From assembly GCA_028277625.1 (NCBI GenBank), contig JANQFW010000089.1, positions 15,815 to 79,814 of the forward strand: a stretch of DNA of 64,000 bases. The letters are read 5' to 3'. The DNA is from Candidatus Gastranaerophilales bacterium (lineage in GTDB: Bacteria > Cyanobacteriota > Vampirovibrionia > Gastranaerophilales > JANQFW01). Positions 31,534 through 63,319 of this stretch are shown in pieces. Numbering within the stretch: position 1 is the stretch's first letter; each line of letters opens with the position of its first letter. Position numbers and translations under genes: made by a program. The notes below the pieces were generated by a model that had not been told where the DNA came from, did not search any database, and saw only the letters and a program-made list of their open reading frames with translations.

Positions 31534-31702
31534 ACTGAGTAATAAAAACTTTTTATTATGTATTAAACTCATGCGAGAATTTAAGTAGTAAAAGATGTAG
31601 AACCTTTTATTCCTTACTTCCTTTGGTGTGTATTAATAAAAAAATAAAAAACATTTAAAAAGAATGGCAATTTTTCTTATGTATATAACTTTATATATAT
31701 AA

Positions 31703-31842
31703 GATAGGTAAAACGTTAAGATAGAGTATAAGTAGTATAACAAAAGACTTTCAACCAATATGTAAACCTATATATTAACCTACACACTTGCTAAAATCTT
31801 TAAACCATTCTTCTTGTTTTTATTTAACAAGAAGTTTTTTTT
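31703..31842 (+). ncRNA. candidate small RNA, family 2 copy A (about 140 nt)
   Basis: GCAATT (31667-72)-N19-TATATA (31692-97). 21-nt core ACCTACACACTTGCTAAAATC (31778-98) is identical to the minus strand of 54734-54. Terminator CTTCTTGTT/AACAAGAAG (31810-34) plus T8. Confidence 0.5.
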
Positions 31843-32338: not shown

Positions 32339-33034
32339 ATGGAATTAAATGAGATTATAGAAAAGTTTCAGGGGTATAAATTGTCCCGAGATAAATTAAC
32401 TCCTTATGAAAGCTGGGCTTTAAATTTCTTCCATGATAAGTCTCACGTATCAAATCCATTTTTGAATGTAACAATGCAGCTTGATATTTCTGAGGCTAGG
32501 AAAAATTATTTAGAAAATTATAAGCCTTTGACAGGTGCATCTTTTACTGCTTTTCTTACTTGGAATTTGATAAAATCATTGAAGAAGCAAGATTGCTTTA
32601 GTTATAGAAGGTTTAATGATGAGTGGTACAGGTTTGATAACTTGCCCGTTTATATTCCTGTCCTTGTAGGTAATGCATTTAGATTTCAGGAGTTTTTCCT
32701 GGAAGATGTAATGGAATCTAACTGGAAAGCATTTTCTTCTGCTTATACTGATAACATTGAAAGAGTAAGAAATAATTTGGATCAATTTAAGGTGATAAGT
32801 CCGATTATATTTAATTTGGCAACTCATATTGGTAACTTATCATATTTGAATTTTACTGGATTTACCCTGCATGGTGTGGATGCAACTGGTAGAAACTTGT
32901 TTTATTTTGGCAAGCGTACAGAACTTAACGATAAATGGAATCAACCGTTAAATGTAACTATAGATCATACCACTGCTGATCCTTATATTTTGAACTTGTT
33001 AATTGAGGATTTTACGCAAGAGTTGGTTAAATAA
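32339..33034 (+). CDS. CAT-like (chloramphenicol-acetyltransferase-fold) acyltransferase
   Basis: 231 aa. Length and C-terminal NVTIDHTTADPYILNLLIEDF (HxxxD catalytic motif in the CAT position) fit CatA-like O-acetyltransferases. Substrate unknown. Confidence 0.6.
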   Translation: MELNEIIEKFQGYKLSRDKLTPYESWALNFFHDKSHVSNPFLNVTMQLDISEARKNYLENYKPLTGASFTAFLTWNLIKSLKKQDCFSYRRFNDEWYRFDNLPVYIPVLVGNAFRFQEFFLEDVMESNWKAFSSAYTDNIERVRNNLDQFKVISPIIFNLATHIGNLSYLNFTGFTLHGVDATGRNLFYFGKRTELNDKWNQPLNVTIDHTTADPYILNLLIEDFTQELVK

Positions 33035-44965: not shown

Positions 44966-45028
44966 TCAAGAATGTTAAACTAAAAATTATCTAAAGTAAA
45001 ACAAAATAAAACTGTTTTAGAACAAAAT

Positions 45029-45116
45029 AAAAAAGGTTCTTTCAGAACCCCATCGTTAGCACATTACCAAATTTTCATTAAATTTTTTTACTTTACCTTA
45101 CCTTTTTTTTTTACCC
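45029..45116 (-). ncRNA. candidate small RNA / leader, family 1 copy C (about 88 nt)
   Basis: Minus strand: GCATTT (45145-50)-N19-TATAAT (45120-25), 5' end GGGTAAAAAAAAAAGG, hairpin GGTTC-TGAAA-GAACC (45035-49) plus T6. Ends about 65 nt upstream of, and co-directional with, rnhC. Confidence 0.45.
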
Positions 45117-45193
45117 AATATTATAAAGTATTTATTTTATTAAAAAATGCGTATTTTTATAAAAATATTAATAAAAATAAATAAAAAATTTTT

Positions 45194-50555: not shown

Positions 50556-52883
50556 ATGAGTGAAGATAATAAAAAACAAAATGATTTTTCTTTTGGCTTT
50601 GAGCTTGATGATTTTCAGCAAGAAGCAGTAAATTTTATTGATGAAGGTAAAAGTGTAGTTGTTTGTGCTCCAACAGGTGCAGGAAAAACTGTTATTGCAG
50701 AACATGCAATTATTAAGGCTATTCAAGATAATAAAAGAATTTTTTATACAACTCCGTTAAAGGCTCTGAGTAACCAGAAATTTAATGATTTTTCAAAAAA
50801 ATATAGAGAGGAACGAGTAGGGTTATTAACGGGTGATATAAGTATTAACAGAATGGCTCAAATAGTTGTTATGACTACAGAAGTTTATAGAAACATGTTA
50901 TATGGAACTTCTTTGGGTAAATTGGAAGAAAACTTAAATAATGTTCAATATGTAGTTTTAGATGAAGTTCATTATATGAACGAAGAACGACGAGGGACAG
51001 TTTGGGAAGAGAGTATTATTTATAGTCCTAATAATATACAGTTAATAGCTCTTTCTGCTACTATTGCAAACGCTGATGAGCTTACTAATTGGATAAATAC
51101 TGTGCATGGTCCTACTAGACTTGTTAATACAGACTTTAGGCCAGTTCCTTTAAGACATTATTATTTTTCTGTAACCCAGGGAAACAAAAAGATTTTACCC
51201 CTGTTTTCGCCTGGAGGAAAGTTAAACTCTAAAATTAAAGCATCAAATGCTCACGTAAAAAGAGGGAAAAGGGTCCACAGGACAGAAGTTGCTCAAAATT
51301 TAGTAAGTAGTCTTTCTGATAAAAATATGCTCCCTGCTATTTATTTTACATTTAGCAGAAAAGGCTGTGATGAGAATATGGAAGCGTGTTCTAAGTTGAG
51401 GCTATTAAATAAGTTTGAAGAAAAAAGATTAATGCAGATTATTGATGAGTATATTTTGGATAATCCATATATAGCCAAGAGTAAATATTTGGAATATTTA
51501 TACTCAGGGGTTGCAAGTCACCATGCGGGAATGCTTCCTGCTTGGAAAGTTTTGGTGGAAAAGCTTTTTCAGCAGGGCTTGATAAAAGTAGTTTTTGCAA
51601 CAGAAACCCTTGCAGCAGGAATTAATATGCCAGCTAGATCAACAATTATAAGTTCTATATCAAAACGATCTGATGATGGGCATAGATTACTTACTGCAAG
51701 TGAGTTTTTGCAGATGTCTGGTCGTGCAGGGCGAAGAGGAATGGATGAAGAAGGTTTTGTTACCGTAGTTGGCTCTGCTCATGAAACGGCTGAGGAGGTA
51801 GCAGAATTAGCATCCTCTACATCTAACCCGCTAGAAAGTCGATTTACTCCAGGGTATTCAATGGTATTAAATCTATTACAACGTTTTAATATGGATGAAA
51901 CAAGAGAGTTAATATTAAAAAGTTTTGGGTATTTTACCTCTTCAAAAAGGTTAAAACCATTTTATGAAGAGCAGGAACGATTAAAAGATTCTATTTTGGG
52001 CATTGAGAACTATAAATGCGTTTATGGACTAACTAATGAAGATGTTAAAACTTATAATAAGCTCAAAAATACTTTTGTTGAGTATAAAAAGATAACAAGC
52101 ACACTGCGAAAGCAAGCAGCAAAAGCCGGCAGAAAAGATGCGCCAGAGGTTATTGAGTATGACATGAAGACAAAAGACCTTTTGAATAAGTCTAGACAAT
52201 TTAGGTGTTATACATGTAGAGAGTACAAAAAGCACATAAAAAGCCTTGATGTTTTAACTAGGTTTCATCGTAGATATAGCAACATAACAAAGTTAATAGA
52301 TTATGAAAAGGATATTTATTGGCAACAGTTTTTAAACTTAATGGAAGTTTTAGAGGAAAAAGGCTTTTTGCATGATAGATATCCGACAGAAGCTGGAGTA
52401 ATGGCTTCTGCTATAAGGGCTGACAATGAAGTTTATTTATCTGATATTGTTATAAAAGGAGTCTTAGATGACTTATCTCCTTCTGAGTTAGCATCTGTAG
52501 TGTGTGCGATATCAACCGAAGATACTAAAAATACACCTTTTAATAAATACTATGTAAGTGGAAAAGTAAGAAAAGCACTAGCTAGATGTGATGGAATAGG
52601 TAGAAGTGTAAAGAAGTTGCAAAAGCAATATAATGTAGATGTCCCTATATTAATGAATCCTGTTTTTTCTTCTTTGATTGAAAATTGGGTAATGGGGTGT
52701 GAATGGAGTGACTTAACAGAGGGGCTTGATATTGGAGAAGGTGATATTGTAAGAGTATTTAAGCGAACCTCTGATGTTTTGAGGCAGTTAATGATTCTGC
52801 CTGGTGTATCAGAGCAAGTAATATCAAATGCGGAGTTGGCTTTTGAATCAATAAATAGAGACCCTATTATTGAGGTTTACTAA
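50556..52883 (+). CDS. Ski2-like DExH-box helicase (HelY-type)
   Basis: Motif I APTGAGKT, II DEVH, III SAT, VI QMSGRAGRRG. C-terminal DSHCT-like region (..GEGDIVRVFKRTSDVLRQL). Confidence 0.9.
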   Translation: MSEDNKKQNDFSFGFELDDFQQEAVNFIDEGKSVVVCAPTGAGKTVIAEHAIIKAIQDNKRIFYTTPLKALSNQKFNDFSKKYREERVGLLTGDISINRMAQIVVMTTEVYRNMLYGTSLGKLEENLNNVQYVVLDEVHYMNEERRGTVWEESIIYSPNNIQLIALSATIANADELTNWINTVHGPTRLVNTDFRPVPLRHYYFSVTQGNKKILPLFSPGGKLNSKIKASNAHVKRGKRVHRTEVAQNLVSSLSDKNMLPAIYFTFSRKGCDENMEACSKLRLLNKFEEKRLMQIIDEYILDNPYIAKSKYLEYLYSGVASHHAGMLPAWKVLVEKLFQQGLIKVVFATETLAAGINMPARSTIISSISKRSDDGHRLLTASEFLQMSGRAGRRGMDEEGFVTVVGSAHETAEEVAELASSTSNPLESRFTPGYSMVLNLLQRFNMDETRELILKSFGYFTSSKRLKPFYEEQERLKDSILGIENYKCVYGLTNEDVKTYNKLKNTFVEYKKITSTLRKQAAKAGRKDAPEVIEYDMKTKDLLNKSRQFRCYTCREYKKHIKSLDVLTRFHRRYSNITKLIDYEKDIYWQQFLNLMEVLEEKGFLHDRYPTEAGVMASAIRADNEVYLSDIVIKGVLDDLSPSELASVVCAISTEDTKNTPFNKYYVSGKVRKALARCDGIGRSVKKLQKQYNVDVPILMNPVFSSLIENWVMGCEWSDLTEGLDIGEGDIVRVFKRTSDVLRQLMILPGVSEQVISNAELAFESINRDPIIEVY

Positions 52884-53226: not shown

Positions 53227-54522
53227 ATGGAAAAGTTTACAGGCTTTATTGGTATTTTTATAATTTTGGGCTTAGCCTTTTTGCTCTCTAATAACAGGAA
53301 AGCTATAAACTATAAACTTGTAGTAACAGGATTGTTACTGCAAAGTATACTAGCAATTTTTATTTTAAAAGTACCGTTGGGACAGCTAATTTTTAAGAAG
53401 TTAGCTGATTTTATTAATCTTATTTTGGATTTTTCTGATAAGGGGTCAGAATTTGTTTTTGGGCCGTTAATGCAAAAAGAATTATTAGTTAAAGCTTTTG
53501 GTGAAGGTAATGACTTTGTGTTTATATTTAAGGTATTGCCTACAATTGTTTTTATTACTTCATTGGTTAGTATTTTATATCATTATGGGGTTATTCAAAA
53601 ACTAATCAGTGTTGTTGCCAAGATCGTACACAGGCTGATGCATGTAAGCGGAAGTGAAGCTCTTTCTAATATATCAAGTGTTTTTGTTGGTCAGGTTGAA
53701 GCTCAAATACTTATAAAGCATTATGTCCCTACTATGACAAAGTCAGAGCTATTGGCTTCTATGTCTGGTAGCTTGGCATGTATTGCTGGTGGTGTAATGG
53801 CTGTATACATAGGATTGGGAATACCTGCTGAGTATTTGTTGACAGCAAGTGCTATGGCTATACCCGGGGCCTTGGTTATATCAAAAATAGTTTACCCTGA
53901 GACTGAAGAATCTAAAACAAAAGACTCTATTACCTTGGACGTTGAAAAAAACACTGTGAATTTTGTAGATGCGATTGCACATGGAGCAAGTGAAGGGTTG
54001 AAAATATCACTAAATGTAGTTGCAATGATAATTTCTTTTATTGCTATTGTGAAAATGGTTGATTATTTTATTGGGTTCACTGGTACTGTTTTTGCAAATA
54101 TGGGAATTTCATTAGGATTTATTGGACTTGATATAAATAGTTTAAGTTTGAAAGATATATTTGGTTCTATATTTTCTTTAGTTGCCTGGACAATGGGTGT
54201 ACCTTGGGCAGATGCTCATACTGTGGGCTCTTTAATGGGAACGAAGTTAGTTATAAATGAATTTGTAGCATACTTAGATTTAATGCCTATTATTAGTGGT
54301 TCAACTAATGTTTTACTTTCTGATAAGTCTATTTTGATTTCAACATTTGCTTTGTGCGGATTTGCAAACTTTGGATCTGTTGCGGTTCTTGTTGGTGGTA
54401 TTGGTCAGTTGGCTCCAAATAGAAGGCAAGATATTGCAAGGTTAGGCTTTAAAGCTCTTATTTGCGGGACTATGGCATCTTATTTGTCAGCAACAATCGC
54501 AGGAATATTAGGGTCTTTTTAA
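53227..54522 (+). CDS. nupC: NupC-family concentrative nucleoside transporter
   Basis: 431-aa polytopic protein with CNT motifs (..SEALSNISSVFVGQVEA.., ..CGFANFGSVAVLVGGIGQLAPNRR..). Confidence 0.9.
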   Translation: MEKFTGFIGIFIILGLAFLLSNNRKAINYKLVVTGLLLQSILAIFILKVPLGQLIFKKLADFINLILDFSDKGSEFVFGPLMQKELLVKAFGEGNDFVFIFKVLPTIVFITSLVSILYHYGVIQKLISVVAKIVHRLMHVSGSEALSNISSVFVGQVEAQILIKHYVPTMTKSELLASMSGSLACIAGGVMAVYIGLGIPAEYLLTASAMAIPGALVISKIVYPETEESKTKDSITLDVEKNTVNFVDAIAHGASEGLKISLNVVAMIISFIAIVKMVDYFIGFTGTVFANMGISLGFIGLDINSLSLKDIFGSIFSLVAWTMGVPWADAHTVGSLMGTKLVINEFVAYLDLMPIISGSTNVLLSDKSILISTFALCGFANFGSVAVLVGGIGQLAPNRRQDIARLGFKALICGTMASYLSATIAGILGSF

Positions 54523-54692
54523 CGGATTTAATGTAAACAACTATATTAAGAGAAAGTTAACTATATCCTGTCTTGCTAAAAAAAATACAAGAATAAAGGC
54601 TTATTTATGGACTGTACCGTTTCAGTTTTAACTAGATAGCTTCTAATATTTAAGCTCTTATTGTAAAAACATATATGACTATTGGTTAATAC

Positions 54693-54797
54693 AAAAAAAA
54701 CTTCTTGTTGGGTGAAACAAGAAGGGAATTAAGGATTTTAGCAAGTGTGTAGGTAGTATATATAATATGGTTTTATTGGAGTTTTGTTGTATCTTAT
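54693..54797 (-). ncRNA. candidate small RNA, family 2 copy B (about 100 nt)
   Basis: Minus strand: GCAATT (54826-31)-N19-TATATA (54801-06), 21-nt core (54734-54) identical to copy A, terminator CTTCTTGTT/AACAAGAAG (54701-24) plus T8 (54693-700). Confidence 0.5.
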
Positions 54798-54981
54798 GTA
54801 TATATAAAGTTATTTACTTTAAAAAAATTGCTTAATTTAAAAAAAAATTTTGATTAGTGCTTTCTAATTTTTAATAAAAAAATGGTGATGTATTTAACAA
54901 CATCACCTGTTTGGTATTTTCCGCCTTTGTGTTTGCCTTATGGTCTCTTCTTCCAATATTTAATTAAATATTTTTAGATAA

Positions 54982-55335
54982 TTATATCATTATGCTAAGT
55001 CTTGTTCCTGTTGTTGAACCAAATGTCGATCTATTATCTACGATTTTAACAATTGTTTCTAAATTCTCTCTTAATCTTTTAGCATCTTTATTTAAGTGTT
55101 CGACTTTATTTTTTTTGCCACTATCAACCAAGCTTGTAAGCTTATTGATTGCTTTTTCTAATATCTTATTCTCGTTATTATCATCCCTGTGGGCAAATGG
55201 TTTTAATGGGTAACCAACCGGTGTGTATCCAAAACCTATATTCTTTTTAGGTTGGCTTAAAGGGGAATTATTATTTGTTTTGTTTATATTATAATTGAAT
55301 TTATTATTATCTATATTGTTTATATTATTCATCAT
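54982..55335 (-). CDS. hypothetical Asn-rich protein
   Basis: 117-aa ORF with a low-complexity N-terminus. No family recognised. Confidence 0.4.
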   Translation of the reverse strand: MMNNINNIDNNKFNYNINKTNNNSPLSQPKKNIGFGYTPVGYPLKPFAHRDDNNENKILEKAINKLTSLVDSGKKNKVEHLNKDAKRLRENLETIVKIVDNRSTFGSTTGTRLSIMI

Positions 55336-57297: not shown

Positions 57298-57413
57298 TAA
57301 ATAAAAAAGTAAAAAAGAAAGAAGATGTCTGTGATATATACTTATTATGTAAAGATATTGTAATAAATTATATTAAAAATGAAATCAAGGTTTTTTTTTT
57401 GTTTTTATATATG

Positions 57414-57466
57414 TGGGTGAAACAAAGGAAAATTAAGTAAAGTGTAATAAAGCTAAGTGTGTAGGT
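57414..57466. repeat. degenerate third copy of the family 2 element
   Basis: GGGTGAAACAA..GGAAAATTAAG...GCTAAGTGTGTAGGT aligns with 54710-54754 (GGGTGAAACAAGAAGGGAATTAAGGATTTTAGCAAGTGTGTAGGT). The minus-strand terminator half is lost. Confidence 0.45.
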
Positions 57467-57544
57467 AATAATAAAGAATTTTAATAATAATCTTCCTTAA
57501 ACTAAACTGACTCTTTTTTAAACTGGTAATGTACTAATAGTGCG

Positions 57545-57572
57545 GGTTCTTCGAAAAAGAACCTTTTTTTTT
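57545..57572 (+). terminator. rho-independent terminator
   Basis: GGTTCTT-CGAAA-AAGAACC followed by T9. Confidence 0.7.
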
Positions 57573-57597
57573 GCCAAAATTTCAATATTTAAATAAT

Positions 57598-62278: not shown

Positions 62279-62316
62279 AAGTTTTTTTAAAATAAAATAA
62301 TTATTTTTATTTTTTG

Positions 62317-62400
62317 GGCAATTTAGAAATTGTTTTTGTTTTTATAATATTGTGAGATAAGTGAGAGCCAAAGTGGGTATAATTATTATTTAATTTGTGT
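62317..62400 (+). repeat. duplicated promoter/leader block, copy 1
   Basis: GGCAATTTAGAAATTGTTTTTGTTTTTATAATATTGTGAGATAAGTGAGAG...GGGTATAATT aligns with 63116-63200. Contains GCAATT (62318-23)-N19-TATAAT (62343-48). Confidence 0.6.
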
Positions 62401-62505
62401 TCAAAAAATGTAAAATTTAAATAATTATCCAACTGTAACATTTTTAAGCTTTTATTTATTTTTTGTAAAGATGAGGTAGTTTTAAAAGGTGTAGGAGGTA
62501 CACAA

Positions 62506-62916
62506 ATGGCAGTATCAGGTATGAATTCTGGACGTACTTACTCTGGAGAGGTTATGGATTTTTTAAAAGGAGGATTTAAGGATAAAAAAGCTTTGTTTGG
62601 TCAGGCGAAAGATTTTATAGCGTTAAAAGATACAGATAAAAATGGAACGATTTCAAAGGAGGAAGCCTTATTTAAAACTAAAGGCAAGATGCAACATGAT
62701 ATAGAAAAAATGTTTAAAAGAGTTGACCTGGATAAAGATGGTGAGCTTGATTATAAAGAGCTGGCATCCTTCAAGTTTTCGGCAGATGTAGATAGAAATA
62801 ATAATGTTACTAATAAAGAAGCGACAAATGCTTATGATGTTTCGATTGATGGTAAAGAAGGCTTTGTTAAAAATATATTAAGAAGTGCTTATACTCTTTT
62901 GGATTTAGGCTCTTAG
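62506..62916 (+). CDS. EF-hand calcium-binding protein
   Basis: Three canonical 12-residue loops: DTDKNGTISKEE, DLDKDGELDYKE, DVDRNNNVTNKE. GTAGGAGG RBS. Confidence 0.75.
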   Translation: MAVSGMNSGRTYSGEVMDFLKGGFKDKKALFGQAKDFIALKDTDKNGTISKEEALFKTKGKMQHDIEKMFKRVDLDKDGELDYKELASFKFSADVDRNNNVTNKEATNAYDVSIDGKEGFVKNILRSAYTLLDLGS

Positions 62917-63115
62917 TTTTTTATTAAATATCACAAGGTATTAAATAATTAGCATAAAGTAATTACTTTTATATATCTTAAGGTAAAAAGCTATAATATT
63001 AGTAAGTATTCAAGTTACCATTAATAAGATTTATTAGGAAATAAAACTATAGATATAAAAATTCATCCCCTTTGAGATACAAATCAAAGGGGATTAGTCA
63101 TATGGTATTCAGTTT

Positions 63116-63200
63116 GGCAATTTAGAAGTTTATTTTGTTTTTATAATATTGTAAGGTAGTGAGGATTAAATATGGTATAATTGGTATTCAGCTTGTGTAT
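63116..63200 (+). repeat. duplicated promoter/leader block, copy 2
   Basis: GGCAATTTAGAAGTTTATTTTGTTTTTATAATATTGTAAGGTAGTGAGG...TGGTATAATT. Contains GCAATT (63117-22)-N19-TATAAT (63142-47). A weak AAGCTT/AAGCTT hairpin plus T8 follows at 63231-63259. Confidence 0.6.
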
Positions 63201-63319
63201 TAAAGAAAATAAATAATAAGTAAAGTTAGTAAGCTTGAAATATTTTTAAGCTTTTTTTTATTAATTTTGCATATATTTGACTTTTAAAAAGTGAATCTTA
63301 ATAGATAGGAGTTTTTAGT

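Follow-up and report, generated by a model that had tools for sequence, protein, structure and literature searches.

The minus-strand locus at 54693-54831 of the window (the whole stretch of DNA analysed here, 64,000 nt), which we call copy B, very probably belongs to a conserved small-RNA gene family of a narrow Gastranaerophilales (Melainabacteria) clade, here named family 2 and without a match in Rfam, as judged by comparing its sequence across genomes. We further consider it fairly probable that copy B is an independently transcribed base-pairing small RNA of ~100-105 nt, predicted to carry a seed block and to have a candidate partner unit elsewhere in the window. The sequence-only reading of this DNA had proposed a stand-alone minus-strand small-RNA gene paralogous to a second locus, copy A, and the proposal now receives strong comparative support, namely seven copies in three genomes, synteny, modular conservation, the absence of a kept reading frame, a single-stranded core and a recurrent promoter. 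Melainabacteria are uncultured non-photosynthetic relatives of cyanobacteria living in animal guts and other habitats, and a full-text literature search for Melainabacteria together with small RNA returns no paper on sRNAs of the group. The invariant seed, the two paralogue types, the shared promoter type and the candidate anti-sRNA of family 2 offer a testable entry into post-transcriptional regulation in Melainabacteria.

Anatomy of the copy B locus

Copy B has four modules on the minus strand within 54693-54831: the promoter-like block is followed by ATAAGATA, the 21-nt core and finally a strong intrinsic terminator; both the sequence and a terminator scan confirm these modules where they had originally been placed. 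Read 5' to 3', the minus strand is GCAATTTTTTTAAAGTAAATAACTTTATATATAC-ATAAGATA-CAACAAAACTCCAATAAAAC-CATATTATATATACT-ACCTACACACTTGCTAAAATC-CTTAATTCC-CTTCTTGTT-TCACCC-AACAAGAAG-TTTTTTTT. The features discussed below are as follows.

53227-54522, plus strand: ORF of a NupC-type nucleoside transporter (Pfam), convergent, its 3' end facing copy B
54831-54801, minus strand: promoter-like block GCAATTTTTTTAAAGTAAATAACTTTATATA, with GCAATTT at 54831-54825 in fixed distance to ACTTTATATA (-10-like TATATA at 54806-54801)
54797-54790, minus strand: ATAAGATA, the probable 5' end of the transcript, invariant in seven of seven family copies
54770-54789, minus strand: variable G-poor 5' segment of the RNA, left unpaired by the minimum-free-energy fold
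54731-54769, minus strand: invariant single-stranded type B block CATATTATATATACTACCTACACACTTGCTAAAATCCTT of 39 nt, the proposed seed
54754-54734, minus strand: 21-nt core ACCTACACACTTGCTAAAATC (also given as ACCUACACAC), within the type B block and common to type A
54724-54693, minus strand: intrinsic terminator, with its stem at 54724-54701 (CTTCTTGTT/AACAAGAAG), loop TCACCC and T8 at 54700-54693
54982-55335, minus strand: Asn-rich ORF without a Pfam match, its 3' end toward copy B
31667-31842, plus strand: copy A, the long paralogue, with promoter block, ATAAGATA, core and terminator as in copy B and a longer middle
57413-57575, plus strand: candidate partner RNA (anti-sRNA), intergenic, 2.6 kb from copy B, with its own terminator at 57544-57564 followed by T9

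The position of the locus in the spacer between nupC and an Asn-rich orphan ORF, as described earlier, agrees with Pfam, by which the first ORF is of the NupC type and the second is without a match. Copy B lies 160 nt downstream of the Asn-rich ORF and on the same strand in all three genomes, and its ATAAGATA is placed 4-11 nt downstream of the -10-like TATATA. The terminator at 54693-54724 had been assigned to the minus strand; the scan calls it on this strand only, and the fold agrees. The fold has an energy of -9.3 kcal/mol (z = -3.25), and it predicts a G-poor RNA that is unstructured except for the terminator hairpin, with an unpaired region of ~70 nt; the type B block is unpaired in every fold as well as in the consensus structure. 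As a separate observation, a AATAGTCAT motif is found ~10 nt past the T-run of copy B (window 54662-54692(-)), and also after the first copy at locus L002 (297-309(-)).

Copies and distribution of family 2

Even with three mismatches allowed, the core has exactly two matches in the window, at 54734-54754(-) and at 31778-31798(+), and two matches are obtained in 0 of 100 shuffles. The second match is exact, which bears out the earlier statement that the core of copy B at 54734-54754 is common to copy A. On the whole, family 2 has seven copies in three Candidatus Gastranaerophilales genomes, and both of its paralogue types are present in each genome: type A is long and located 3' of an amylase-like gene, and type B is short and located 3' of the Asn-rich ORF. 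When the exact 18-mer of the core is scanned against 185,579 species genomes, plus metagenome contigs, two MAGs labelled Candidatus Gastranaerophilales are the only ones to have the core in family context, with type A at loci L001 and L006 and two tandem type B copies at L002, where the whole module (promoter block, RNA and terminator) is in tandem duplicate. The fourth type B copy, at L021 (1-66(-)), was reached via a contig with a TolC-like homologue. The exact 18-mer scan missed it because its core has an extra AC (CCTACACACACTTGC), an expansion of the AC dinucleotide and the sole change inside the core. This shows that the CACAC tract tolerates slippage and that exact-word scans undercount the family, and family 2 may be wider than found, since an exact word misses indel variants. 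The L021 copy ends at the contig edge inside the T-run, and the terminator is present in seven of seven copies.

The genomic neighbourhood is kept along with the copies. Type A follows a gene of the amylase family, of 933-938 aa, with orthologues in L001 and L006, and type B follows the Asn-rich ORF, an ORF divergent from the TolC-like gene. Among the three genomes, the products of the amylase-like gene share 78-84% identity and those of the TolC-like gene 58-59%, and the next amylase homologues have at most 46% identity, showing that the clade is narrow and sampled by three genomes only. Two loci with distant homologues of the amylase-like gene (L019 and L020) have no family 2 unit, and the only homologue on record of the Asn-rich ORF is the ORF itself.

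The other matches of the 18-mer scan are attributed to chance. This applies to 12 metagenome loci, which have no terminator and no family context and are mostly coding, and to three genomes outside the family (Doudnabacteria, Planktomarina and Synechococcales); the match in Synechococcales, Yfr1-like at first, falls on the final codons of a 351-aa ORF of the opposite strand. No relative of family 2 is found in viral contigs, phage records or plasmids. Rfam 15 gives 0 matches for the whole window at gathering thresholds, and at E values up to 10 the region 54600-55000 has no match on copy B, the only one there being Spy490380c (E = 1.9) at 54896-54985.

Conservation, coding potential and structure

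We take as conservation the columns that are identical in the three-genome alignment of the type B locus. By this measure the spacer before the unit reaches 26%, the promoter block 26/34 columns and TACATAAGATA 10/11, followed by the 5' segment of the RNA with 11/34 (including a 14-nt insertion in one genome), the block CATATTATATATACTACCTACACACTTGCTAAAATCCTT with 38/42, the linker with 3/9 and the terminator stem-loop with 22/25. Type B is hence clearly modular, with ~90% of the columns invariant in the 39-nt block and terminator against 26-33% in the spacers, and this pattern is that expected of a base-pairing sRNA having a sequence-constrained seed beside its terminator.

The unit is non-coding. 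ATG is absent from the copy B RNA, and the sole ORF of at least 20 aa on this strand, a TTG ORF of 21 aa, starts inside the core; its frame is broken between copies, because the linker varies in length (4, 6, 6 or 7 nt). The consensus structure of the seven copies consists of the terminator alone, with the core unpaired. No compensatory pair (0) is seen in the terminator stem among the seven copies from three genomes, because the stem itself is invariant, and the loop includes CACC in six of seven copies (four with UCACCC and two with UCACCU). Overall, three generic properties of a stand-alone trans-acting sRNA gene are present, namely a Rho-independent terminator on the same strand, a non-coding sequence and a conserved accessible seed region.

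Proposed promoter and transcript start

The proposed promoter of copy B is not called in a scan for the sigma-70 consensus. It belongs to an architecture, GCA[ACT]TTT-N15-17-[CT]TT[TA]ATA[AT][AT], which has eight sites in the window versus 0.1 in shuffles, located as follows.

31667(+) and 54831(-): family 2
3258(+), 27376(+) and 45150(-): family 1
32244(+): upstream of ORF 32339
62318(+) and 63117(+): two conserved long leaders

Five of the eight sites thus precede small-RNA candidates, and the architecture is common to family 1, family 2 and three promoters of protein genes or leaders. In the other genomes, too, each family 2 copy is preceded by it. Such recurrence points to a shared sigma factor or regulator. 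The -10 element of family 1 is the canonical TATAAT, with GGGT 4-6 nt further on, and if family 2 behaves likewise its transcripts should begin in CATAAGATA; TAAGAT, which fits TAnnnT, might instead be the -10 element, with the start ~7 nt further downstream. The independent transcription predicted for copy B is well supported in silico.

Two paralogous leaders of ~190 nt, both starting with GTGAGATAAGTGAGAGCCAAAGTGGGTATAAT, are observed downstream of the shared promoter type at 62314-62505(+) and 63113-63300(+). One of them precedes an EF-hand-like ORF (62506-62916) and has a conserved counterpart in L021 (5450-5777). The two have no Rfam match at gathering thresholds and may be cis-regulatory leaders.

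A candidate partner unit at 57413-57575(+)

The unit at 57413-57575(+) has a conserved upstream region and orthologues at L002 (2886-3015) and L021 (2593-2737). Two of its segments, GTGGGTGAAACAAAGG at the 5' end (57413-57428) and the internal GCTAAGTGTGTAGGTA (57452-57467), run collinear with the copy B antisense in the terminator loop, 5' arm and core. The unit carries AAGUGUGUAGGUA, complementary to the family 2 core, and AAGTGTGTAGGTA at 57455-57467(+) is a 13-nt exact complement of the core, the only long one in the window outside the family 2 loci. In addition, the CACC of the family 2 terminator loop is complementary to the GGGUG at the 5' end of the partner.

A duplex scan with the whole RNA is uninformative, as G-rich coding regions dominate its ranking, and core-only scans are used instead. 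In the window, the partner site ranks first with -23.1 kcal/mol against a background of -5.3 +/- 2.6, and in shuffles on the window alone 0 of 15 shuffled cores reached -23.1, the best having -21.3. The orthologous site is first in L002 (-26.1, the next being -16.2) and second in L021. The extended duplex amounts to -45.8 in the window, -38 to -41 in L002 and -30.9 kcal/mol in L021, all values from which the cost of opening the terminator hairpin is not subtracted. When the stretch of copy B between terminator loop and core is read as antisense (TGGGTGAAACAAGAAGGGAATTAAGGATTTTAGCAAGTGTGTAGGTAGTA), it aligns collinearly with the partner's 5' half in the window and in L002, and the local alignment score of 44 compares with 23 +/- 3.7 for shuffled sequences, none of 200 shuffles reaching it. 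The L021 orthologue has the same collinear blocks, by eye and in the joint alignment. The similarity to the copy B antisense begins at the putative first transcribed bases of the partner.

Extended complementarity between two separately encoded units, conserved between genomes, as in a sponge pair, is found here, with the caveat that only GTAGGTA is strictly kept in the three genomes, the anti-core segment being the most variable part of the partner unit. Compensatory changes are not seen in the three genomes, and a G-to-A change in the L021 partner is uncompensated. We hold it possible, with some reserve, that copy B and the 57413-57575 unit form a functional sRNA/anti-sRNA pair; the complementarity could also be the decaying trace of an inverted duplication that has no function.

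The 3' part of the partner (AAACTGGTAATGTRCTAATAGTG and the terminator) is seen to resemble the family 1 copy at 45000-45118(-), and the unit may combine family 1-like with anti-family 2 parts as a chimera.

Relation to family 1

The sequence-only reading had remarked that the plus strand of the terminator loop loosely resembles the 5' end of family 1, and this stands in part. The plus strand at 54710-54725 does read GGGTGAAACAAGAAGG, and the antisense of copy B aligns significantly with the 57413-57575 unit, but it has no significant similarity to the three canonical family 1 copies at ~3290, 27408 and 45118. Since GGGTGAAAC, which occurs three times in the window, is found at both 54710(+) and 57415(+), the resemblance is real, but it points to the 57413 unit. 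The alignment of families 1 and 2 that had been put forward as a check likewise gives a relation for one unit only, 57413-57575(+), together with its L002 orthologue (0 of 200 shuffles), and not for the canonical copies. The further suggestion that the two families might overlap as a sense/antisense pair stands in a narrower sense only, the relation to the 57413 unit being complementarity in trans over ~55 nt instead of overlap in cis. The trait that families 1 and 2 share is the promoter architecture.

Proposed mechanism and alternative explanations

While the modules of copy B, their conservation, the lack of coding, the structure and the complementarity are established from the sequences, we infer its transcription, start site, in vivo pairing and regulatory outcome, in the following way. 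Copy B would be transcribed independently from about 54797 to 54693(-), ending at the Rho-independent terminator. Its function most likely resides in the single-stranded invariant block that comes just before the terminator (UACUACCUACACACUUGCUAAAAUCCUU), and this block would be the seed for antisense pairing with other RNAs. The 5' half of the partner would pair with copy B in collinear order, over its core, linker, terminator loop and 5' terminator arm, so that the two RNAs might titrate or destabilise each other, in the manner of an sRNA and its anti-sRNA or sponge. The mRNA targets would probably be purine-rich ribosome-binding regions (AAGGA, UAGGU). In ~94 kb of the three genomes (about 64 kb plus 30 kb) no conserved mRNA target is found. 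Four target leads are rejected for lack of conservation in the orthologous loci. Two of them concern the ribosome-binding region of ORF 62506-62916, at -23.2 kcal/mol, and, for ORF 32339-33034, its 3' end; the other two are internal sites in genes, the TolC-like gene of L021 and the amylase-like gene of L006 and L001.

Since copy B is on the same strand as the Asn-rich ORF and 160 nt downstream of it in three genomes, and since the sigma-70 scan finds no consensus promoter, it might be the 3' part of a longer read-through transcript of the Asn-rich ORF and element X (the conserved stretch directly 3' of this ORF), or be processed from such a transcript. We consider this unlikely, in view of the strong terminator GGTGATG..CATCACC with T7 (54907-54884) between the ORF and copy B, and of the unconserved spacer (26%) from that terminator to the promoter block. 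Moreover, the promoter block is common to copy A, which has another upstream gene, it fits the eight-site architecture, and it is included in the tandem duplicate of L002. Rather improbable, too, is an RNA that titrates a protein, in which an RNA-binding protein would be bound through repeated motifs, UAAGAUAG/UAAGUAG of type A as well as AACCUAUAU/ACCUACAC. Type A does have two to three TAAGATAG-like and three AACCTATAT-like repeats with ~13 nt spacing, and the RNA is unstructured; type B, however, has single copies of the motifs and yet shares the invariant 21-nt core, an uninterrupted invariant stretch of 21-39 nt is what one would sooner expect from a pairing surface than from a short motif for a protein, and no candidate protein is identified.

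The conserved sequence might act as DNA, either as an operator or as a promoter for the plus strand (TTAGCA-17-TATAAT, 54738-54766), the minus-strand RNA being irrelevant, and the scan does report a promoter-like site of 10/12 on the plus strand inside the core. Such matches, though, are at chance level in this AT-rich region (10 versus 8.9 expected), the -10 part is lost in type A, nothing coding or conserved lies downstream on the plus strand, and neither the terminator, called on the minus strand only, nor the promoter block upstream would have an explanation, which makes this reading highly unlikely. We give the least credence to a remnant of a repeat or mobile element, or to a small protein gene, suggested by the two to three copies per genome and by the 21-aa TTG ORF overlapping the core and terminator: the copies are in synteny between genomes with protein identities of 58-84%, terminal repeats are not noticed, viral contigs, phages and plasmids are without a match, and non-triplet indels between copies break the frame of the ORF. 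A base-pairing small RNA is thus the explanation that we prefer.

Comparison with known sRNA systems

Melainabacteria are the sister group of cyanobacteria and fall in the same phylum-level lineage as the hosts of Yfr1. The known system nearest to family 2 by analogy is Yfr1/Yfr2 of cyanobacteria. [quoted passage not shown] Between Yfr1 and Yfr2 the conserved motifs show near complementarity, and in Prochlorococcus MED4 Yfr2 prevents Yfr1 from interacting with its target (PMC6778093); Yfr2 has the complementary motif at its 5' end, which is unpaired, and a second one in a loop of 12 nt carried by a long bulged stem (PMC2662882).

Like Yfr1 (and Yfr10), family 2 is predicted to be a short ncRNA with a conserved unpaired C/U/A-rich motif that ends with CACAC just upstream of a Rho-independent terminator, and like Yfr1 it has a partner with a nearly complementary conserved motif, in the present case predicted from sequence. 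Nevertheless, to match the Yfr1 motif ACUCCUCACAC with the copy B block ACUACCUACACAC two inserted A residues are needed, and the 11-nt motif is absent from the window with up to one mismatch allowed, so copy B does not qualify as a member of Yfr1. Unlike Yfr1, moreover, family 2 is without a 5' stem-loop and hence without the two-stem-loop organization, and has a length of 100-160 nt in place of 54-69 nt. On the partner side, the likeness to Yfr2 consists in a purine-rich sRNA with a motif of the GUGUG...AGG type, here the unit with GUGUGUAGG; unlike in Yfr2, the anti-core site is internal, the complementarity is collinear over ~55 nt and includes the terminator loop, and no long bulged stem is predicted. 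The 57413-57575 unit has no Rfam match. A Yfr2-like loop motif GAAACAAGGAAA (inferred from primers, PMC2662882) gives two matches versus 0.9 expected, neither of them in these units.

Family 2 may therefore resemble Yfr1 in its possible mode of action, which is not demonstrated homology, and we judge a true homology of the system to Yfr1/Yfr2 improbable at best. A wider hypothesis, which we regard as rather doubtful, is that family 2 and the 57413-57575 unit are a functional pair arisen by inverted duplication, and form together with family 1 a co-regulated sRNA network in non-photosynthetic Melainabacteria, as a counterpart of the Yfr1/Yfr2/Yfr10 crosstalk or even a very diverged homologue of it. 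The inverted duplication is invoked because the putatively transcribed 5' half of the partner is an antisense copy of the family 2 core and terminator loop. The system bears on the question of whether sRNA-sRNA crosstalk of the Yfr1/Yfr2 kind predates the split of Melainabacteria and oxygenic cyanobacteria; if it is only a clade-specific sRNA with ordinary mRNA targets, it would be a routine addition to the catalogue.

Beyond cyanobacteria, RsaE/RoxS is an example of the C-rich, G-poor and largely unstructured base-pairing sRNAs of low-GC bacteria, with an intrinsic terminator and with conserved single-stranded C-containing motifs able to pair with purine-rich ribosome-binding sites. Family 2 is similar in being G-poor and in having a conserved single-stranded C-containing motif and an intrinsic terminator, but it is without CCCC motifs and without similarity in sequence or structure. 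The sole match of the Rfam RsaE model is on copy A and at chance level (13.8 bits versus a gathering score of 79, E = 9).

Other elements in the window

Element X, at 54876-54954(-) directly 3' of the Asn-rich ORF, consists of GGAAGAAGAGACCATAAGGCAAACACAAAGGCGGAAAATACCAAACAGGTGATG-loop-CATCACC and T7. It has 72 of 79 columns identical in the three genomes versus 26-29% in its flanks, and the protein of the Asn-rich ORF looks by eye much less conserved than the element. Its sole Rfam match is at chance level (E = 1.9). Element X represents either a conserved part of the 3' UTR or one more small RNA.

The window also includes direct repeats that look intergenic, namely 5484-5570/7362-7448 (87 nt, 98% identity) and 4911-5032/5329-5450 (122 nt, 71%), and a tandem pair at 43563-43677/43725-43840 with units of ~162 nt, each ending in a short hairpin and then a T-run. 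These direct-repeat pairs may be additional small-RNA families. Finally, the window codes for a 775-aa DEAD-box helicase of the Ski2/Mtr4 kind (50556-52883(+)) with a C-terminal DSHCT (NUC185) domain, and this helicase of the RNA-surveillance type could be relevant to RNA turnover here.
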